Position numbers and translations under genes: made by a program. Shown here in pieces: positions 9,792-62,843 of a stretch of 64,000 bases of DNA. Positions within the stretch are counted from its first letter, which is position 1. Each line of letters opens with the position of its first letter. The stretch spans positions 32,001-96,000 of the IMG/VR virus record IMGVR_UViG_3300046616_000431; one strand, given 5' to 3'. Below the pieces are notes generated by a model that did no database searches, was not told the origin of the DNA, and saw only the letters and a program-made list of their open reading frames with translations. This stretch comes from a virus.

Positions 9792-9829
9792 CAGGCGTAC
9801 CCGCCAAGAACCCACCACAAGAGGTCCTG

Positions 9830-10549
9830 TTGACCGAGATCACCTTCCGCTCCGACGTCACCGTCGAGCTGGTCAAGCACACCGCGTCCGACCCCGATGT
9901 CCTCTTCGCCGCCCGCGTCTCCACCGCCGGGGAGCAGTCCCTGGAAGAGATCGGCAAGGACCCGGAGCGCTCCAAGGGCCTGATCAACTACCTGATGCGG
10001 GACCGCCACGGCAGCCCGTTCGAGCACAACTCCATGACGTTCTTCGTCAGCGCACCGATCTTCGTCTTCCGCGAGTTCATGCGCCACAGGGTCGGGTTCA
10101 GCTACAACGAGGAGTCCGGCCGGTACCGCGAGCTGCAGCCGGTCTTCTACGTCCCCGGATGGGATCGCAAGCTCGTCCAGGTCGGCAAGCCGGGCGCGTA
10201 CACCTTCGAGCAGGGCTCGCCCCAGCAGTACCTGTACATGAAGAACTCGATGGAGACTGCGTACAAGCAGGCGTACGCCACCTACCAGGAGATGCTAGCC
10301 GCAGGCATCGCCCGCGAGGTCGCCCGCGCCGCCTTGCCAGTGGGCCTGTTCTCGTCGATGTACGTCACCTGCAACGCGCGCTCCCTGATGCACTTCCTGG
10401 GCCTGCGCACGACCCACCCTGACGCCAAGGTTCCCTCGTTCCCCCAGCGGGAGATCGAGATGGTCGCCGAGCAGATGGAGGCCGCCTGGGCCGAGCTGAT
10501 GCCGCTCACGCACGCCGCCTTCAACAAGAACGGCCGCGTCGCGCCGTAG
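9830..10549 (+). CDS. thyX: FAD-dependent thymidylate synthase
   Basis: HGSPFEH and RHRVGFSYNEESGRY signature; NARSLMHFLGLR; QREI. Confidence 0.97.
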   Translation: MTEITFRSDVTVELVKHTASDPDVLFAARVSTAGEQSLEEIGKDPERSKGLINYLMRDRHGSPFEHNSMTFFVSAPIFVFREFMRHRVGFSYNEESGRYRELQPVFYVPGWDRKLVQVGKPGAYTFEQGSPQQYLYMKNSMETAYKQAYATYQEMLAAGIAREVARAALPVGLFSSMYVTCNARSLMHFLGLRTTHPDAKVPSFPQREIEMVAEQMEAAWAELMPLTHAAFNKNGRVAP

Positions 10550-13112: not shown

Positions 13113-13185
13113 CAGAAGCCCCCCGGGCCGCCAAGCACCGAAGGGCTTCTGGTTAGCGAGGGCCGCCAAGCACCTCGCCAAGTTC
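13113..13185 (-). ncRNA. Candidate small RNA with two UUGGCG-loop hairpins
   Basis: Hairpins 13113-13151 and 13156-13178; C/A oppositions on + become G-U pairs on -; TAGGTT -10-like box at 13192-13197 on -. Confidence 0.4.
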
Positions 13186-13208: not shown

Positions 13209-13242
13209 CTGTCCACCGGTGCCATTCCGCCCCAAGGGGTGA
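13209..13242 (+). promoter_or_regulatory. Putative late promoter motif
   Basis: CTGTCC-N19-AAGGGGTGA upstream of sheath. Confidence 0.65.
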
Positions 13243-28081: not shown

Positions 28082-29415
28082 TGACGACTCCCATCCACCA
28101 GGGCAGCGGTCTGTACGGCTCGGCCGTCGTCTCCGGCGGCCTGATGCCGCTGCAGGCCGACATCACGGTGCCGCAGTCGACGGCGCTGGCCAGCGGTACC
28201 GGCATGCTGGTCGCCGACACTGCCATCACCGAGCAGCTGCGGCACTTCCCTGAGGACGTCTACGACCTCCGGCCGACGTCGCACCTGGTGCGGCTGATGC
28301 AGGTCCTGCTCGGGGAATCCGGCGTCGGCCAGCTGCGCAAGCGTCTCCTCCTGGCCCAGCTGCAGACGCTGTCCTCGTCGGGGGCGAGATTCTTCGATCT
28401 CGACCGCTTCTACGGTGCCCTGTTCGGGGCAACTCGGGCCGACTCCGAGCAGCTGACGATCAACCCCATGGAAACGTCGACCGCGACGGCCGCCGAGTGG
28501 GAGTCAATCGAGGCTGCCGATGCGTCATTCCGGGACCGGATGACCGCACTTGCCCAGTCAATTGCCATGGGCGGCACCGTGCCGGGCCTGACGGCGGCGG
28601 CCGAGGCCATCACCGGCGTCGAGTGCGACGTCTTCGAGTCCTGGGCACTCCTGGACGCCACGGACGATCCCCAGGCGGCCGGGCACGACTGGACGTGGAT
28701 GGAGGGCGCTGCCAGCTGGGCCGACTACGAGGGCCAGATCTGGGGCGCGCTGGAGGGGACGCCGTTCTACGGCCGCTCCGGCGTGCTGACGCGCAGCGAG
28801 CTGCTGGTCCGGGTGAACCGGGACTACCCCTCGACGCCAGAGGGCCGGTCCCAGCGCACGAGCGACGAGTGGGCGCTGGTGCGGGTGCTGGAGCGGATCA
28901 AGCCCGCGCACATCCTTCTCACGGTCGACACGCAGGGGACCTCGGCGCTGCTGCCCCGGGGTATCGCGGCGATCAGGTCCGACAGTGAGCACTGGGAGAT
29001 CGCCACCCGGGTCACGCCGGGCCAGGTCCCCCTGGGGGCAACCCCCTACCCGCTGTCGCCGCAGCAGGAGGCAGACGGCATTGACTCCGGGTCATCCCGG
29101 GTATTGCCCCGGCCTCCGCTGGTCACGAAGATCGGCGACGAGTGGGCGTACGGGTCACAGATCCCGACGTGCCGGACGTACTCGGTCACGCCGACGGACG
29201 ACGTCGACTTCACCGAGCCTGGACCGGTCCCTGACTCCGGACTTGACTCAATTGACCAGTCAGTTGTCTGGCGTGACGGGACAAGCACGGTCTACCGGGC
29301 GACGCTCGGGTCAATGGACCCGCTGCTGAGCCAGGCGGCCCGCGCGGGCGCCGACGGCGTCCTGGTGGCGAACCCGTACAGCGGCGACCGTCGGATGGTC
29401 CTGACGACCGACTGA
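28081..29415 (+). CDS. Baseplate wedge protein (gpI-like)
   Basis: GGTVPGL..AAEAITG; LERIKPAH motif; follows J. Confidence 0.7.
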   Translation: MTTPIHQGSGLYGSAVVSGGLMPLQADITVPQSTALASGTGMLVADTAITEQLRHFPEDVYDLRPTSHLVRLMQVLLGESGVGQLRKRLLLAQLQTLSSSGARFFDLDRFYGALFGATRADSEQLTINPMETSTATAAEWESIEAADASFRDRMTALAQSIAMGGTVPGLTAAAEAITGVECDVFESWALLDATDDPQAAGHDWTWMEGAASWADYEGQIWGALEGTPFYGRSGVLTRSELLVRVNRDYPSTPEGRSQRTSDEWALVRVLERIKPAHILLTVDTQGTSALLPRGIAAIRSDSEHWEIATRVTPGQVPLGATPYPLSPQQEADGIDSGSSRVLPRPPLVTKIGDEWAYGSQIPTCRTYSVTPTDDVDFTEPGPVPDSGLDSIDQSVVWRDGTSTVYRATLGSMDPLLSQAARAGADGVLVANPYSGDRRMVLTTD

Positions 29416-41609: not shown

Positions 41610-43007
41610 TCAGGCGGCCTGGGCGAGCTGGTTCCTGCGGACCAACTCGTCGTAGCTGGGCTCCTCTTCGAGCCAGAGCAGCCTGCCGTCCGAGGCGATG
41701 ACCAGGTCGGAGATGATCTCGCCGGTCGCCGGGTCGATGACCTCGTTGCCCCACTGCCAGCGCTGGTCGACCTCGTCGCCACGGACGGGCGTCACGTCGG
41801 CCATACGGCGCTCCCGCAGGCGGGGGAGGGTGATCTCGTGCCAGATCAGCCGCTGGGCCTTGTGCAGCTCCAGGCGGCGCTGAGAGGTCCCCTCGGTGCC
41901 CACCTGGGCCGCCACCGCATCCCAGCCGTCCCAGGCCTCGGAGAGCGCCTCCTGGGCCGTCTCAGTGAGCGCCCAGAGGCTTCCGTCCCGGGTCACCAGG
42001 TCGTACTCAGCAAGGCGCTTCAGGTGGCGGTACGCGGTGGCGACGCTGAGCATGGCGCTCTCGGTCAGTTCGGCCGCCGTCTGCCTGTCGTTCCTGCTCA
42101 GGGCGGCCAGCAGCTTCAACGAGGAGGCGCCCAGACCCCGGTGGGCGAAGGCATCGAGGGACATCAGCCGAGAGATGACGGCACCGTCCAGGTCACCGTT
42201 TCTCAGGTTCGACACACTCGATTGCGCCCCCCCAGGCTGCGCCCCCATGGGGTTGTGTCGACGCTGAGAACGGTCTTCAAAAATCATCCACTGGGACCCC
42301 TTCTCACCCGAGCCGGACTCCATCAGCCGGACCCAGCCCTTGAGGCGCTGCGTGGTGGCGATGTAGGCGGTCCTGGCGGTGCACCCAGCGATCTCGGCGG
42401 CCTCGCGGTAGGAGAGCGTGTAGACGCGGCCCCCAGCGCGGTGGGCGGCCTTCCAGTGGGCCATCAGGACGCGGAGGTTGGTCGATCCGGCAGTGCCGCG
42501 CCAGGAGGCGCTGGTGATCCGGTCCCGCAGCTCGATGAGGTCGATGACGGCGTCCTGGCGGGAGCCGATGGCCACCCCGGACCCGACGCACTTGACCGCG
42601 CGCTGCCAGACCTTGTCGATGTACTTGTGGGCCGAGGGCATGCTCATGTTGCGGACGTGGTTGCCGCCGGTGGACGGCCAGTCGATGAGCGCCTCGGTGA
42701 ACTGGTCCCGGGTCCAGCGGTGCCGGACGGCAGCAGCAGCGACGGCTGCGGTGATCGCGTGGCCGTGCTTCGACTTCGCGGACTGGAGGCTGGAGGCGTC
42801 GGTCGAGCCGTAGCGGCTCTCGGTGTCGCCGTCGATCAACACGCCTGCCATACGCGGCGAGAGGGCCGGGAAGCGGTGCGACCAGTGGTTCGACTGCAGG
42901 TCACGCGGGGACGCGTCGCGCAAGGTCGCGGTTGCGGAAACGACACCGAGATTCAGGTCACTTTCGGCGTGCCGCACGGGCTGAGAGATACTAAAATGAG
43001 CAAGCAC
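41610..43007 (-). CDS. Putative plasmid-type replication initiator (helical bundle + two wHTH)
   Basis: LSYREAAEIAGCTARTAY and QTAAELTESAMLSVATAYRHLKRL wHTHs; internal IR element in the linker; flanked by long non-coding regions; start uncertain. Confidence 0.55.
   Translation of the reverse strand: MLAHFSISQPVRHAESDLNLGVVSATATLRDASPRDLQSNHWSHRFPALSPRMAGVLIDGDTESRYGSTDASSLQSAKSKHGHAITAAVAAAAVRHRWTRDQFTEALIDWPSTGGNHVRNMSMPSAHKYIDKVWQRAVKCVGSGVAIGSRQDAVIDLIELRDRITSASWRGTAGSTNLRVLMAHWKAAHRAGGRVYTLSYREAAEIAGCTARTAYIATTQRLKGWVRLMESGSGEKGSQWMIFEDRSQRRHNPMGAQPGGAQSSVSNLRNGDLDGAVISRLMSLDAFAHRGLGASSLKLLAALSRNDRQTAAELTESAMLSVATAYRHLKRLAEYDLVTRDGSLWALTETAQEALSEAWDGWDAVAAQVGTEGTSQRRLELHKAQRLIWHEITLPRLRERRMADVTPVRGDEVDQRWQWGNEVIDPATGEIISDLVIASDGRLLWLEEEPSYDELVRRNQLAQAA
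42200..42270 (-). repeat. Copy B of ~70-bp element, inside the rep-like CDS
   Basis: Encodes the interdomain linker SQRRHNPMGAQPGGAQSSVSNLR; inverted relative to copy A. Confidence 0.8.
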
Positions 43008-43290
43008 GGAGTGCTCGGCCCTTCTCTTTGGTCAGACGGAGAGGCCGGACCACCGTGAGGGCGATGGTCAGACCGCATAGGTCGCGTCGCCTGGCGGGAA
43101 CCCGTCCTGGCGGGTTGGGTTCCTTTTCCTGCTCGGCTTGCTTGGCGGCTTGACCGAGTGGATGAGACCTCCCAGGCGGAGGTCGAGCCTTACGTGAGGG
43201 GCGCGGGAACCTGTGGCGGGTTCCTAGCGCCCCTCCAGCTTTTCTACGTGCTGTCCATGATCGAAAGCTCCCTTGGCGGGGCCGGGCAGC
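43004..43290 (+). ncRNA. Candidate multi-hairpin countertranscript RNA with UGGCG loops
   Basis: GTGCCG-N17-TAAAAT promoter-like box at 42969-42997; five hairpins with GGC(G) loops; G-U pairs favour +. Confidence 0.45.
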
Positions 43291-43524
43291 GCGCTGACCG
43301 GCGAAGCGTGGTGGTGGGCCGAAGGTGGCGGGTACGGGCCCAGGGCACATTGAACATCATCAGACCCCGGTATGGGGAGTCAGGGTGCGATATAGCACTC
43401 CTGACGGCGTGTCGGCTGCCCGCCAGATCCGAACGACGAGTTCCGTGAGAACGCGGCCCTGCTTCGGTAGCGTGCGAAATCCGCCAAGATAACCCGCCAC
43501 GCGTTGCCTAGGGGCCCATCCGCC

Positions 43525-45615
43525 ATGTCTTCAGCCCTGCCTGGAACCTTCCTCTCCACCCAAGCCGTCCTCTCCCAAGCGCTGCCGAACTACCGCGAAC
43601 GACCGCAGCAGTTGAACCTCGCCCTCCACATCGAGCACACCTTCATGGACCGCCTGGAGGAGGAGATCGAGTCGGAGGGGGCCCCGCGCGTCCTCATGGC
43701 CGAGGCCGGGACCGGCACGGGCAAGTCGCTCGCCGCGATGATCCCGCTCATCCACGCCAGCCGCCGGGGCGGCCGGTACATCGTCGCCACCTCGACGATC
43801 GCCCTCATGAATCAGTACATTCGTACCGATTTGCCGATGCTGGAGCGCGAACTGGGCAAAGTGGGCGTCAACTTCACCTGGGCACCGCTCAAGGGAATTT
43901 CCAACTTTGCATGTGCCGTCAAGCTCGCCGAGGGCCCGGCCATCGCGAACCTCAAGCCCCTGCTCGACGAGCTGAACGCCACCGACGACGAAGGCCAGCT
44001 CACGCACACCGGCGACAAGGACGACATCCAGACGCCGATCGACCACCGCACCGAGTGGAAGCTCCTGTCGGCAGGCCAGGACGAGTGCCCCGGCCGCTCC
44101 AAGTGCGCCATGGCCGAGAGCTGCTTCGGCATGAAGCACAAGGACCAGGCCATGGAGGCGGGCATCGTCGTCACCAACACGGCCGTGCTCATGCTGGACA
44201 CCAAGCTCTACCGGCAGACCCGCCGGACCAGCGCGACCGGCGAGGGCATGCACATCCTGCTCGGCGACTACGACGGCCTGGTCGTGGACGAGGCGCACGA
44301 ACTGGAGTCGACCGCGACTTCGCACCTCGGCATCGACGTGAAGCAGGGCGGCCTGATCCGCTACACGGACCAGGTCGTGAACTTCATCAACACCCACAGC
44401 GAAGACGACGCCGGAGCGCAGCTCCAGCAGGACAAGATCCTCGCGCACCTCGCTGACGTCGGCGACGGCATCCTGGAGGTACTGGGCAAGGAGGAGCGGG
44501 CCACCCTCGGCACCGACTTCATCGTCGAGAACTTCTCCTCGTTCGAGTCGCTCTTCGTCGAGCTGATGGACCTGATCGCCAAGCTGCGCAAGACCAAGAT
44601 CGACCGAGGGGACGCCGAGCGGTACGAGGACGTCAAGGCGCGGCTCAGCACCCAGGGGAGCAACTACCTCGCCCACCTCAAGGAGATCCTGCTGGCCGAG
44701 CCGGACAAGGTCGTGCGCTGGGCCGAGACCTACGGCGACCGCCGCCGCGAGGGAGGCCCGCGCTGGGCCATCAAGACCGCGCCCATCGAGGTCGGCGACT
44801 ACCTCCGCGAAGAGCTGTGGAGCCGGGTGCCCTCGGTCCTGATGTCCGCCACCCTCAGCGCCGGAGTCGGCCGGTCCCGCTTCGACTACATCCAGCGCTC
44901 CCTCGGCCTGCAGGGCGCCGAGATCCTCGACGTCGGCACCCCCTTCGACTACCCCAACCAGGCCCTGCTGTTCGTCCCGGAGTCCAGCGTGCCGTCCCCG
45001 AGCCCCAACACCCGGGGCGCCTGGGAGACCTGGGTCCGCGAGGCCACCTTCAAGCTGGTGCAGATGGCCGGAGGCGGAGCCATGCTGCTCTACACCTCCC
45101 GCAAGGCCATGGATGACGCCTACGACGCGCTGTGGCCGCGCCTGCAGGACATCGGCTGCCAGAGCTTCCTGCAGGGCAGCGACCTCACGAACAAGGAGAT
45201 CGCAGCCCGCTTCCGCGACGACGAGGACAGCGTCCTGTTCGGCCTGCGCAGCTTCATGACGGGCATGGACTTCCCCGGCCGGACGAACCGGCTGGTCGTC
45301 GTGGACAAGCTGCCCTTCGCCGTGCCGACGGACCCGATCCACATGGCCCGAGAGGACGCCATCCGCAACCGCGACGGCAACCCCTTCATCGACCTGGCCA
45401 TCCCCACCATGACCCTCACGCTGGAGCAGGCCTTCGGCCGCCTGATCCGCAGCACCGACGACCGGGGTGTCGTCGCGATCATGGACTCGCGCCTCTCCTC
45501 GACCTGGTGGGGCCAGAAGATCCAGGCGGCGCTGCCGCCCGCGCGGCGCACCACGGCCTTCGCCGACGTGGAGGACTTCTACGCCCAGGACTCCGCGCTG
45601 GAACTCGCCTCCTGA
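43525..45615 (+). CDS. dinG: DinG/YoaA family helicase
   Basis: ERPQQ Q-motif, EAGTGTGKS, Fe-S Cys, VVDEAH, MSATL, DKLPF, QAFGRLIR. Confidence 0.93.
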   Translation: MSSALPGTFLSTQAVLSQALPNYRERPQQLNLALHIEHTFMDRLEEEIESEGAPRVLMAEAGTGTGKSLAAMIPLIHASRRGGRYIVATSTIALMNQYIRTDLPMLERELGKVGVNFTWAPLKGISNFACAVKLAEGPAIANLKPLLDELNATDDEGQLTHTGDKDDIQTPIDHRTEWKLLSAGQDECPGRSKCAMAESCFGMKHKDQAMEAGIVVTNTAVLMLDTKLYRQTRRTSATGEGMHILLGDYDGLVVDEAHELESTATSHLGIDVKQGGLIRYTDQVVNFINTHSEDDAGAQLQQDKILAHLADVGDGILEVLGKEERATLGTDFIVENFSSFESLFVELMDLIAKLRKTKIDRGDAERYEDVKARLSTQGSNYLAHLKEILLAEPDKVVRWAETYGDRRREGGPRWAIKTAPIEVGDYLREELWSRVPSVLMSATLSAGVGRSRFDYIQRSLGLQGAEILDVGTPFDYPNQALLFVPESSVPSPSPNTRGAWETWVREATFKLVQMAGGGAMLLYTSRKAMDDAYDALWPRLQDIGCQSFLQGSDLTNKEIAARFRDDEDSVLFGLRSFMTGMDFPGRTNRLVVVDKLPFAVPTDPIHMAREDAIRNRDGNPFIDLAIPTMTLTLEQAFGRLIRSTDDRGVVAIMDSRLSSTWWGQKIQAALPPARRTTAFADVEDFYAQDSALELAS

Positions 45616-47931: not shown

Positions 47932-48019
47932 CAAGGTGCCTCCCCGCCAAGAGGCCGAATCCCACGGCAGACAGCACTGATTTGCCGTGCCCAGCCACCG
48001 CCAGGTTGGAGCTATCAAC

Positions 48020-48457
48020 TTGATCAACTTCGCCCCCGCCGCGCCGTACGGCAAGGCCGCTCAAACTGTCGCGAAGCCGAAGAGCGGCACTGTCCGGACA
48101 GTCGAGCCGACTTCCCCCGGCATCCAGTCCGCCATGACTCGCCCGCTGCCCGCCACGGCCGCCACGGACCTTCTGAGCAGCCCCACGGACTGGGACTGGC
48201 AGCAGCTGCGCGACTACGTGATGCGCTCCGTCGCCGAGCGCCACGGCCCGCAGCCCGCCATGGACCCGGTCAAGATCCGGTCCATCTTCCAGTCCTTCGC
48301 GCAGCGCTGGGGCAACCAGGCCGGGCCCATCGCCCGCTTCGCGTTCGAGGAGCAGGACGGCTTCTGGCGCAGCGCCCCGGTCACCCCCTTCAAGTTCGTC
48401 AAGAAGTGGGACCCGCACTTCGCGGGCCCGATCAGCGAGCGGCTGGCCGATGCCTGA
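48020..48457 (+). CDS. Hypothetical protein, upstream of helicase loader
   Basis: GGAG RBS + TTG 48020. Confidence 0.6.
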   Translation: MINFAPAAPYGKAAQTVAKPKSGTVRTVEPTSPGIQSAMTRPLPATAATDLLSSPTDWDWQQLRDYVMRSVAERHGPQPAMDPVKIRSIFQSFAQRWGNQAGPIARFAFEEQDGFWRSAPVTPFKFVKKWDPHFAGPISERLADA

Positions 48458-48722: not shown

Positions 48723-48769
48723 TCCACCCTGCCCGGCCGCCAACGGGCCCTCATCAAGGACCGCCAACC

Positions 48770-49606
48770 TTGAAACCGCCACCCAAGCCTGACGCCTGCA
48801 TGCCGCTGTCCAACCCGGACTTCGAGCGCCTGAAGGCCACCTACCCGAAGCTCTGGGTCGATCCGAAGCGCGAGTGCAAGACCTGCCTGAAGCAGAACGG
48901 CAACACCTACCGCTGGTGGGCCGACAGCACCCGCACCGAGATCGCCACCTACGAGTGCGACTGCACCGCCCAGTGGCTGATGCACCTCTGGTTCCTCAAC
49001 GCGGGCATCGGCCTCAACTACCAGCGGCTCACCTGGGACGACGTCTCCGCCGTGGGCCCGGACATCGTTGCGCAGATCGGCGACTACGCCCTGAACGCGG
49101 CCCGCCGCGTCTCCGACGGCCGCAACCTCGTCCTGTGGTCGACCGGCCCCGGCACCGGCAAGACGCTGCTGCTCACGCTGCTGCTCAAGACGCTCATGGT
49201 GCAGGGCTACCAGGTCCACTTCAGCCAGTTCAACGAGATCATCGACCTCTTCACCAACTCCTGGCGCGACAAGGCCGAGCGCGAGCAGTGGACCCGCCGC
49301 GTACGCAACGTCGACGCCCTCGGCATGGACGACATGGGCAAGGAGCACAAGGGCCGCCTGGAGATGGTCGAGGCCATGGTCGACCAGATCGTCCGCGCCC
49401 GCGTCTCCGACTCCCGGCCCATGGCCATCACCTCCAACTTCACCCCCCAGCAGATGCAGGAGGGGTACGGCGGCTACGTCATGAGCCTGCTCAGCGAGCA
49501 GGCCGACTTCATCGAGGTCACCGGTAGCGACTTCCGGCCCCGCCGCCGCGAACTGACCGCCCAGGAGGCCGCCCTCGGCCTCGCCCGACCGATTGCAGCG
49601 GTGTGA
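48770..49606 (+). CDS. DnaC/IstB-like helicase loader
   Basis: CKTC...CDC Zn motif; GPGTGKT; MDDMGKE; ITSN; AAGGA RBS + TTG. Confidence 0.88.
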   Translation: MKPPPKPDACMPLSNPDFERLKATYPKLWVDPKRECKTCLKQNGNTYRWWADSTRTEIATYECDCTAQWLMHLWFLNAGIGLNYQRLTWDDVSAVGPDIVAQIGDYALNAARRVSDGRNLVLWSTGPGTGKTLLLTLLLKTLMVQGYQVHFSQFNEIIDLFTNSWRDKAEREQWTRRVRNVDALGMDDMGKEHKGRLEMVEAMVDQIVRARVSDSRPMAITSNFTPQQMQEGYGGYVMSLLSEQADFIEVTGSDFRPRRRELTAQEAALGLARPIAAV

Positions 49607-61687: not shown

Positions 61688-61754
61688 CACCTGCAGCACC
61701 ACCGGCCGACCGCCAACGGCCGCGTACCGCCTCCTACCGCCAGGGAGACCCCTC

Positions 61755-62843
61755 ATGGCCTCGAAGGGCCTTTCCAAGCTCCGCACCGATCTGACCAAGG
61801 TGTACGGGGACCGCGTCACCCGCCGGGATCAGATGATCCCCCCGACGTTCGTCTCCACCGGCTCCATCACCCTCGACTACGCCATGGGCGGTGGGTTCGC
61901 GCTCAAGCGCACCCACGAGATCCTCGGCCCCGAGGGCATGGGCAAGACGTCGCTGGCGAACCTCACCATGGCCAACGCCCAGCGCCAGTTCCCCGACCGC
62001 GCCGTCTCCGTCATCGACATGGAGCAGGCCTACGACTTCGACTGGGCCCGCAGGCTCGGCGTCGATGTCGACGACGAGGACAGGTTTTTCCACCTCTACC
62101 CGAACCACTCCGAGGATGTCTCCGACCAGATCGGCATGCTGCTGCGCAGCGGCGAGGTCTCCCTGGTCGTCGTCGACTCCATCGGCGGCATGGAGTCCCG
62201 TGCCGCGTTCGAGAAGAAGGCCGAGGAGTCGGCCATGGGCAAGAACGCCCAGGTCATCTCCCGCATGGTCAAGCGCGTCGCCGGACTGTGCCGCGAGAAC
62301 AACGCCGCCGTCGTCTTCATCAACCAGTACCGCGCCGACATCGGCAACCCGCGCGGCGGCCAGAAGCCCGCAGGCCCCTCCGCGCTGAAGTACAACACCA
62401 CGACACAGCTCAAGATGAGCCGCACCGGCGAGACCACCCGCAAGGTCACCATCAGCGACGCCGTCTCCGAGGCCCCCAAGGACCTGGAGGTCGGCCGCCA
62501 GCTGCGCGTGAAGGTCACCCGCAACAAGCTCGCCGCCCAGGGCCGCAGCGCCGACTTCTGGTTCTACAACGTCGCCACTGAGAAGTACGGCCCCGTCGGC
62601 GTCGACCAGATGGACGAGGCCGCCGTCCTCGGCATGGCCACCGGCGCCATCAAGCGCCTGTCCACCGTGTCCTACGAGTTCCCCGGCGGCGCCCAGGTCA
62701 AGGGCGGCCGACCCGGCGTCCTGGCCTACCTCGCCGAGCACCGCGAACTCGTCGGCCAGATCCGCGAGCTGGCCCTGCAGAGCATCTCCAGCGAAGTCCA
62801 GTCCGAGCACACGGTCTCCTACGACGACGAGGAAGCAGCATGA
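61755..62843 (+). CDS. recA: RecA recombinase
   Basis: STGSITLD, GPEGMGKT, IDMEQ, VVVDSI, FINQ.R, ALKY, KVTRNK. Confidence 0.95.
   Translation: MASKGLSKLRTDLTKVYGDRVTRRDQMIPPTFVSTGSITLDYAMGGGFALKRTHEILGPEGMGKTSLANLTMANAQRQFPDRAVSVIDMEQAYDFDWARRLGVDVDDEDRFFHLYPNHSEDVSDQIGMLLRSGEVSLVVVDSIGGMESRAAFEKKAEESAMGKNAQVISRMVKRVAGLCRENNAAVVFINQYRADIGNPRGGQKPAGPSALKYNTTTQLKMSRTGETTRKVTISDAVSEAPKDLEVGRQLRVKVTRNKLAAQGRSADFWFYNVATEKYGPVGVDQMDEAAVLGMATGAIKRLSTVSYEFPGGAQVKGGRPGVLAYLAEHRELVGQIRELALQSISSEVQSEHTVSYDDEEAA

Follow-up and report, generated by a model that had tools for sequence, protein, structure and literature searches.

The DNA analyzed here is a stretch of 64,000 nt (the window) that corresponds to bases 32001–96000 of the IMG/VR virus record IMGVR_UViG_3300046616_000431, which is 112,362 bp long and has an estimated completeness of 72%. 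The window has a G+C content of ~68%, and nearly all of its genes are plus-strand genes. Among its products are a baseplate and tail module, DnaE, RecA, ThyX, a DinG-type helicase, and, from the minus strand, ParA. Our subject is the intergenic region between a minus-strand gene for a winged-helix protein and the plus-strand gene for the helicase, whose helicase domains were confirmed by Pfam (Table 1). A preliminary description of this region had noticed an array of hairpins sharing a TGGCGG motif and had proposed that they form a countertranscript or a master small RNA. The array is indeed present, and 43092–43525 is the densest TGGCGG/CCGCCA cluster of the record: the 500 bp from 43051 contain 10 copies, the maximum of the 112,362 bp (mean, ~1.07), and no second UGGCGG cluster was found when one was looked for elsewhere in the record. 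In the window as a whole, TGGCGGG occurs 37 times (24.3 ± 5.2 in shuffles), and 7 of these copies fall within 43092–43499, where ~0.15 would be expected per 410 bp.

The plus strand reads TGGCGG at 43092, 43108, 43143, 43214, 43274, and 43326, with AGGCGG at 43175, and CCGCCA at 43420, 43481, 43494, and 43520. The orientation of TGGCGG(G) is thus plus up to 43332 and minus from 43419, and the flip in polarity near 43400 that had been reported is borne out by the four CCGCCA copies. Four of the five hairpins originally listed (43097–43123, 43131–43157, 43166–43184, and 43196–43235) are predicted to be stable on the plus strand (−12.5 to −34.5 kcal/mol), whereas the fifth, at 43267–43282, is weak, with 3–5 pairs. 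Similarly, the T-runs said to follow two hairpins (43097–43123 and 43196–43235) both exist, but only the second is kept in relatives. The TAAAAT box from which a plus-strand RNA had been proposed to start is also present, at 42992–42997.

Because homologues of the winged-helix protein occur on many Streptomyces contigs of 150–158 kb and because the element in the window is syntenic with pRLB1-9.1, a complete and annotated circular plasmid of 154,158 bp, we assign the element to a family of ~155-kb Streptomyces phage-plasmids. The intergenic region was compared with seven related ones (L121, which is pRLB1-9.1 and the same record as L169; L124; L125; L126; L127, the same record as L167; L166; and L168), and all counts out of eight given below refer to these seven and the window. 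Several of the eight sequences are closely related (three are in close pairs), and the winged-helix proteins of the relatives are 47–77% identical to that of the window; ~20 further ~155-kb NCBI contigs with a winged-helix homologue lie outside the comparison. Searches of IMG/VR with the winged-helix or helicase protein returned no close relative, searches of phage GenBank records no near relative, and BLAST of 401 sampled Streptomyces genomes no additional relative; a metagenome scan with the conserved block of the intergenic region gave nine loci, all of them unrelated.

Table 1. Features of the intergenic region, its flanking genes, and three further leaders (window coordinates; 8/8, all eight compared sequences)
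Feature	Position	Strand	Description
Winged-helix (MarR/ArsR-like) gene	41610..42977	minus	GTG start likely at 42977; alternatives 43007, 42853
Palindrome GTGCnGCAC	42969..42977	strand-neutral	conserved in relatives; overlaps likely winged-helix start codon and −35 position of plus promoter
−10 box TAAAAT	42992..42997	plus	TA[AG]A[AC]T in 8/8; T1, A2, A4, and T6 invariant
Proposed structured RNA, ~240 nt	43003..43246	plus	putative start site to U-run; consensus fold
Stem-loop S+	43059..43092	plus	outer stem of 8 pairs; inner hairpin GACC/GGUC with variable pentaloop
Hairpin H1	43097..43123	plus	CUGGCGGG in 13-nt loop; −14.8 kcal/mol
Hairpin H2	43131..43157	plus	UUGGCGG in loop; −13.0 kcal/mol
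Hairpin H3	43166..43184	plus	covarying stem; loop motif not conserved
H4, terminator-like 3' end	43194..43245	plus	GC-rich two-tier stem GAGGGGCG...CGCCCCUC, then UUUUCU; −34.5 kcal/mol
Minus-strand start region	43244..43282	minus	CCCCGCCAAGGGAG (box and Shine-Dalgarno), then ATG at 43258; together 43282–43256
GTGGTGGTGG, then covarying hairpin	43308..43339	ambiguous	loop GUGGCGGG (CCCGCCAC on minus); 8/8, differing stems
Conserved box CATTGAACATCAT	43347..43359	strand-neutral	CATT[GC]AAC in 8/8; at polarity switch
DinG-like helicase promoter and leader	43468..43527	plus	−10 TAGCGT at 43468–43473; CCGCCA at 43481, 43494, and 43520
Candidate target leader before gene at 48020	47938..48010	plus	two hairpins, CCCGCCAA and ACCGCCA loops; pRLB1-9.1 orthologues 33540, 33592
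Candidate target leader before helicase-loader gene	48731..48773	plus	tandem hairpins, GCCGCCAA and ACCGCCAA loops; pRLB1-9.1 orthologues 34360, 34384
Candidate target leader before recA	61703..61757	plus	free ACCGCCAA-loop hairpin, then hairpin with GGGAG Shine-Dalgarno as 3' arm

Conserved order and strand-specific pairing from 43003 to 43246

Read on the plus strand, all eight sequences share one order of parts: the palindrome GTGCnGCAC; the box TA[AG]A[AC]T, separated by 15 nt from the codon at which the minus-strand gene likely starts; GCACGG...CCGTG, which in every sequence closes a variable inner hairpin in the 5' domain; a nearly invariant block, which forms stem-loop S+; a variable stretch; and GAGGGGCG...CGCCCCUC followed by 3–5 T. 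A plus-strand transcript from the TAAAAT box, as the preliminary description had it, is the best-supported reading of this order, given the −10 box, the G·U pairs specific to the plus strand, and the terminator-like stem with its U-run, the first and last of which are found in all eight sequences; a minus-strand promoter was not located.

The pairing was examined with RNAalifold, which on the plus strand of the eight sequences gave a fold of 37 pairs. In this fold, 94.5% of aligned cells are paired, compared with 39–48% when the partners are slid against each other; 7 of 500 column shuffles reached 94.5%. Taken over all plus-strand helices, there are 27 G·U cells and 7 A·C cells. Within stem-loop S+, 98.4% of cells pair, and five of the eight pairs vary on one side only; its variable columns read AU/GU, GC/AU (compensatory), GC/GU, CG/UG (one CA), GC/GU, and UG/UA/CG, so that one pair shows a double compensatory change (GC to AU) and another changes from UG to UA or CG. 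In S+ alone, 15 cells are G·U and would fail to pair on the minus strand, compared with a single C·A.

Further along, the variable stretch between S+ and H4 forms two or three hairpins. The stem of H1 covaries in L124, L125, and L126, with G·U pairs on the plus strand in the first two, and a loop of the H2 type, (C/A)UUGGCGG or AUGGCGG, is found in seven of the eight sequences on differing stems. The stem of H4 is invariant in all eight sequences and is followed within 2–6 nt by 3–5 T in each of them; on the plus strand, three relatives have an internal U·G. Reportedly, Franch et al. set out in 1999 a YUNR rule for the loops of antisense RNAs. The H1 loop CUGGCGG and the H2 loop UUGGCGG fit this rule, as do their counterparts in most relatives; the copies in H4 and at 43326 begin with GUGG and fall outside it.

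The two strands were then compared by counting, in the three closest pairs of sequences, how many substituted base pairs are kept. From 43003 to 43246, 28 of 63 such pairs (44%) persist on the plus strand, compared with 11 of 44 (25%) on the minus strand, whereas from 43250 to 43345 the corresponding numbers were 6 of 39 (15%) and 10 of 27 (37%). The first interval thus appears to favour the plus strand, and the second the minus strand. A minus-strand consensus fold of the conserved block uses a different stem, the variable columns of which are split 2:2, and a minus-strand hairpin was therefore set aside as unsupported. The two strands of this block (43003–43092 and 43044–43074) can form mutually exclusive hairpins, each with G·U pairs of its own. 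The substitutions support only the plus-strand alternative, but transcription may occur from both strands. A search with an automatic stem finder in which G·U and A·C were both accepted was confounded by the alternative stem.

Three small open reading frames (ORFs) in the proposed RNA (43028–43153, 43158–43448, and 42991–43350) were considered and ruled out by indels of 1, 2, and 10 nt among the relatives; because these are not multiples of three, coding is excluded for 43003–43246. A search of the window against Rfam 15 at gathering scores gave no match, and a search of 42900–43600 at E ≤ 5 gave a chance microRNA match only.

CCGCCA as a start-associated box

If the loops of the proposed RNA act by base pairing, their complement, CCGCCA, is the sequence of interest elsewhere in the element. 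When starts are taken from the PGAP annotation of pRLB1-9.1, the intervals from −50 to +6 of plus-strand starts hold 61 of the 267 plus-strand CCGCCA copies, compared with 16.4 expected (3.7-fold). CCGCCA is the second most enriched hexamer of these start regions (z = 10.8). These copies cover 48 of the 162 plus-strand genes (~30%), and none of the 19 virion genes (442–24766) of pRLB1-9.1 has CCGCCA in this interval. Nine pRLB1-9.1 genes open with CCGCCATG. Plus-strand TGGCGG near starts is rare (3 of 86 copies in pRLB1-9.1).

A scan for perfect hairpins returned a family with variable stems of 5–6 pairs and an (A/C/G)CCGCCA(A) loop, nearly all on the coding strand. In the window, examples lie at 47938, 48731, 48754, 54723, 55044, and 61703; in pRLB1-9.1 the family has 45 members, of which 39 are plus-strand hairpins. 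They occur at orthologous leaders, where the stems are often swapped for other complementary sequences. In pRLB1-9.1, 31% of start-region CCGCCA copies are presented in hairpin loops closed by 5 or more pairs, compared with 2% when the flanks are shuffled. Often the Shine-Dalgarno sequence forms the 3' arm of the hairpin, which in many cases is GGAG or GAGG, 5–12 nt before the start codon. The identity of RecA in the window was confirmed. In the recA leader of pRLB1-9.1 (46535 and 46555), the stems are likewise replaced by different complementary sequences, and the recA and helicase-loader leaders of the window were confirmed to belong to the CCGCCA-loop family. A pattern scan of IMG/VR for tandem CCGCCAA gave at least 119 loci, all attributable to chance and none hairpin-enriched.

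The preliminary description had also pointed to individual complements of 10–11 nt between the array and sites at 9797, 13127, 13162, 43491, and 47942. All of these exist, but their number is within chance: 10-mer complements total 143, compared with 115 ± 22 for shuffled queries, and because of this the individual matches carry little weight. An RNAduplex scan of start regions gave unrealistically long hybrids and was not used.

The nearest candidate target of the proposed RNA is the leader of the helicase gene with its three boxes. The helicase probably starts at the ATG at 43525, which lies within CCGCCATG, and in the six relatives that could be aligned here its −10 reads TAGCGT, TAACGT, or TAATCT, 7–9 nt 5' of the first box. 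In L121 (28600–28990 of pRLB1-9.1), L127, and L168, ~330 bp are inserted between the conserved boxes and the helicase promoter; the window has no such insertion. In a different arrangement, the plus-strand RNA would be an attenuated 5' leader of the helicase operon and UGGCGG would pair intramolecularly with the CCGCCA copies at 43420–43525, hiding the helicase start. Inverted repeats of 9–18 nt that are 83–100% complementary do link 43091–43222 and 43325–43333 to 43413–43508, and the c4 RNA of phage P1 is made from the same transcript as its target. However, the helicase has a conserved −10 of its own, which is retained in the relatives with the 330-bp insertion, and the stem with its U-run stands between array and helicase in all eight sequences; we consider an attenuated leader very improbable.

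Other patterns were noted at gene starts. In pRLB1-9.1 (L121–L123), the hexamers most enriched in the 50 nt or less 5' of starts are TAGAGT and AGAGTG (13 of 21 copies, z = 11), and a further enriched pair, CACCAC and CCACCA (z ~8), frequently adjoins CCGCCA, one example being the thyX leader (9797–9830 of the window). In the window, two direct copies of GGCCGCCAAGCACC, 35 nt apart, lie at 13120–13175, 5' of the tail-sheath gene, with CAAGGGGTGA following at 13223–13232. Outside these subjects, the minus strand of pRLB1-9.1 at 69476–71032 (19476–21032 of L122) encodes a tgmA-type precursor of an ATP-grasp-modified RiPP (ribosomally synthesized and post-translationally modified peptide) together with a MvdC/MvdD-family ATP-grasp ligase, from which we conclude that this related phage-plasmid carries a natural-product cassette.

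The winged-helix gene, its proposed leftward leader, and a possible role of the motifs as DNA

The minus-strand gene had been called rep-like. This identity is unsupported: no Rep family was found by Pfam, PHROGs, NCBIfam, PDB sequence, or fold. Pfam placed only winged helix-turn-helix families on the protein (residues 291–352), PHROGs and NCBIfam gave no match beyond generic winged helices, the best PDB sequence match (E = 0.04) was a repressor-like protein, and a fold search returned only MarR-type regulators (predicted local distance difference test of the model, 65). The matches are thus limited to generic winged helices of the MarR/ArsR type. The frame upstream of its PGAP-type start (42853) is open in all eight sequences and encodes a conserved HWxRRFPxLSP, codon 11 of this long frame is GTG or ATG in all of them, and coding-type variability at third positions is confined to codons 31–52; for these reasons 42977 is the likely start of the gene. 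No coding periodicity is seen in the next 30 nt to the right, which hold TAAAAT. The palindrome GTGCnGCAC overlaps both this start codon and the site at which a −35 of the proposed plus-strand promoter would lie, and is therefore a putative operator that may serve autoregulation.

Right of the H4 stem, the arrangement points to the opposite strand. Read from the alignment, a box, a purine-rich Shine-Dalgarno sequence, and, 5–9 nt on, an ATG or GTG follow each other on the minus strand in all eight sequences. The small ORF that begins there has 4 codons in the window and in L124 and 24–28 codons in five relatives, in which it continues across the GC-rich stem of H4 and has ...PL(F/T/A)A as its C terminus; the ORF may encode a leader peptide or may simply result from the conservation of that stem. 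On its strand, it is preceded by CCACCACCAC and a covarying hairpin with a CCCGCCAC loop, for which two relatives favour the minus strand and one the plus strand. Because this design (box, Shine-Dalgarno, start codon, and loop hairpin) equals that of the plus-strand leaders, the fifth hairpin and the motif at 43326, which the preliminary description had counted as parts of the plus-strand RNA, are read most simply as the sense start region of a leftward transcript. They fit this role better in both the eight-of-eight conservation and the strand test. Such a transcript would, further on, run antisense to the proposed plus-strand RNA. Where the polarity of the motif turns, the box CATT[GC]AACATCAT is invariant across the eight sequences and could be a promoter element for a sigma-like protein of the element itself, or a DNA site.

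These observations raise the possibility that the minus strand alone matters. The hairpins would then be ordinary CCGCCA-loop leader elements in a 5' untranslated region of ~490 nt that starts near 43340, contains a small upstream ORF, and belongs to the winged-helix gene; the boxes would be read by the factor (a protein or the ribosome) that also reads those at all other start sites, and a plus-strand RNA would be absent or have no role in trans. The polarity of the motifs matches the direction of the flanking genes, the start signals at 43282–43256 are fully conserved, the substituted pairs of 43250–43345 are better kept on the minus strand, the folding z score of 43000–43345 is −3.0 on the minus strand and −2.0 on the plus strand, and the winged-helix frame requires a promoter to the right of 42977. 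Against this, the 27 G·U cells that the stems of 43003–43246 have on the plus strand would turn into A·C mismatches on the other strand, the variable columns of the alternative minus-strand stem split evenly, TAnAnT and the U-run are conserved plus-strand features, and 115 nt separate the start at 42977 from the nearest minus-strand box. Taken together, we find a minus-strand role alone possible but doubtful.

The motifs might also act as duplex DNA, as iterons or operators for the winged-helix or another protein at a plasmid origin or a divergent promoter, in which case the copies at gene starts would resemble the stoperators of Cluster A mycobacteriophages. Stoperators, which are bound by gp71 in L5, likewise occur in a single orientation near gene starts. 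The opposed arrays flank a conserved and less GC-rich box (43347–43359) beside a gene for a DNA-binding protein, and the copies at 43274 and 43326 are fixed in position. However, the unit is only 6–8 nt long, its spacing is irregular (16–60 nt), and most copies are not positionally conserved. Further, the arms vary and covary around a constant centre, a pattern that marks a hairpin in a single strand rather than an operator; the G·U-type substitutions are strand-specific; nine genes open with CCGCCATG; and the distant homologues of the winged-helix protein on other replicons have no TGGCGG-type cluster beside them. An iteron-type origin in particular, with direct repeats of ~17–22 bp at regular, helical-phase spacing that are kept as units, does not describe the array, in which the shared unit is 6–9 nt, the spacings are 16, 35, 32, 39, 60, and 52 nt, and relatives differ in the copies that they have gained or lost. 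We regard a DNA-level role of the motifs as unlikely.

The proposed RNA and its relation to known systems

We return to the plus-strand RNA. The analysis suggests that 43003–43246 specifies a non-coding, structured RNA of ~240 nt that is antisense to the leader of the winged-helix gene and able to pair with CCGCCA boxes in trans, a reading to which we give an even chance of being correct. The RNA would start ~6 nt past the −10 box at 42992–42997, which lies back-to-back with the winged-helix start on the minus strand; in pRLB1-9.1, its counterpart would span ~28213–28430. From 5' to 3', its fold would consist of a closed domain, the conserved stem-loop S+, the two or three hairpins of the variable stretch, and a GC-rich stem that ends in a U-run. 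In its loops and linkers, (C/U)UGGCGG, which is exactly complementary to CCGCCA, would be exposed three to five times. Because it would be fully complementary to the leader that the winged-helix gene must have, it could act in cis as a countertranscript. In trans, loop–loop (kissing) pairing with CCGCCA boxes would alter ribosome access at many starts together; the targets would be the start regions of replication, recombination, and other non-virion genes, including the three boxes of the helicase leader, and the most likely effect would be that early genes are held down in the plasmid state. The statistics of the motif, its conservation, the covariation, and the strand bias are observed, whereas synthesis of the RNA, its pairing with the boxes, and the direction of any effect are inferred.

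Several observations weigh against this reading. The fold contains five pairs with double changes, a number reached by 32 of 500 shuffles, so that covariation among the eight sequences is modest. The best-conserved copies of the motif, at 43274 and 43326, sit past the terminator-like stem and read better on the minus strand. Within the RNA, the number of UGGCGG loops ranges from 1 to 5 per relative, and their positions shift. A generic sigma-70 scan found no −35/−10 pair at 42992–42997, where the −35 region is poor. The plus strand folds more stably than the minus strand, but by no more than in shuffled sequences, and the comparison of folding energies is uninformative because a G-rich plus strand is favoured equally in the shuffles. 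Target complementarity of 10 nt or more is not above chance, as the count of 10-mers given above shows, and a protein instead of an RNA could read the CCGCCA boxes.

The original idea of a countertranscript that also silences genes elsewhere thus survives in part: the proposed RNA lies opposite the winged-helix leader, and its UGGCGG loops are complementary to the CCGCCA that is associated with starts genome-wide, whereas the rep identity of the gene is unsupported and the single complements are within chance. Silencing of lytic genes and repZ-like pseudoknots, both named in the preliminary description, are at this stage conjectural. That one RNA is both the countertranscript of a maintenance-gene leader and a master translational switch, which by kissing the CCGCCA loops would turn off (or on), as a group, approximately fifty genes of the early, replication, and recombination classes, is a wider proposal, which we put forward tentatively. 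It would amount to an RNA-based immunity directed at an entire regulon and not at one antirepressor operon.

Among the closest parallels are the immunity antisense RNAs of phage-plasmids and satellites, namely the c4 RNA of P1 and P7 and the CI RNA of P4. These, like the RNA proposed here, are small structured RNAs of temperate elements that direct short exposed sequences against short targets recurring in transcripts of the same element, in or close to ribosome-binding sites, and P1, like the present element, is kept as a plasmid. Yet c4 and CI have 2–3 targets in one operon, whereas here the complementary word occurs at ~48 start sites; they show no sequence or Rfam similarity to the RNA proposed here. 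Exposed complementarity to repeated targets in its own mRNAs, as in c4 and CI, was found at the level of a 6–8-nt word (3.7-fold enrichment, z = 10.8, and presentation in loops) but is not above chance beyond the word.

In its position, the proposed RNA resembles CopA/CopT of R1, RNA I of ColE1, and the Inc RNA of IncIα and IncB plasmids (with its repY/repZ leader peptide), copy-control countertranscripts of plasmids that act by the kissing of recognition loops of 5–8 nt. Like them, it would lie opposite the leader of a maintenance-type gene, has several predicted stem-loops, with loop starts (CUGG and UUGG) that follow the YUNR rule, and would face a small ORF upstream in the sense leader. 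However, those RNAs control a replication initiator and measure 60–110 nt, whereas here the product of the sense gene matches only generic winged helices, the upstream ORF has 4 codons, and the RNA would be ~240 nt long with loops that also match many unlinked genes.

A short word just 5' of many start codons has been described in Cluster K mycobacteriophages as the start-associated sequence (SAS) and extended SAS (ESAS), the function of which is given as unresolved (PMC12699233). Like the boxes described here, SAS and ESAS belong to a temperate actinophage and occur mostly outside the virion module (PMC12699233). In contrast, the SAS is a 13-nt sequence, GGGATAGGAGCCC, that contains the Shine-Dalgarno sequence, whereas the word here is the C-rich CCGCCA, often in a hairpin loop; further, the text of PMC12699233 describes no complementary RNA for the SAS, whereas here the complement is present in a putative structured RNA. 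CsrB and RsmZ, finally, also repeat a hairpin-loop motif that is related to many ribosome-binding sites, but the motif of Csr RNAs is the one that the mRNAs also have, and these RNAs act by titrating a protein. The RNA proposed here would carry the complement and not the same motif, which points to RNA–RNA pairing.

Start-associated motifs of actinophages, such as SAS and ESAS of the Cluster K phages, were recognized more than ten years ago, and to our knowledge no mechanism has been put forward for them. The element described here has a start-associated motif and also carries its exact complement in what appears to be one conserved structured RNA. The RNA and its boxes could become an orthogonal module for translational control in Streptomyces. 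If the proposed pairing is true, it would carry the type of antisense immunity known from P1 c4 and P4 CI beyond one operon, to a regulon of approximately fifty genes, and would show how the widespread but unstudied ~155-kb phage-plasmids of Streptomyces silence their lytic replisome while they are kept as plasmids.

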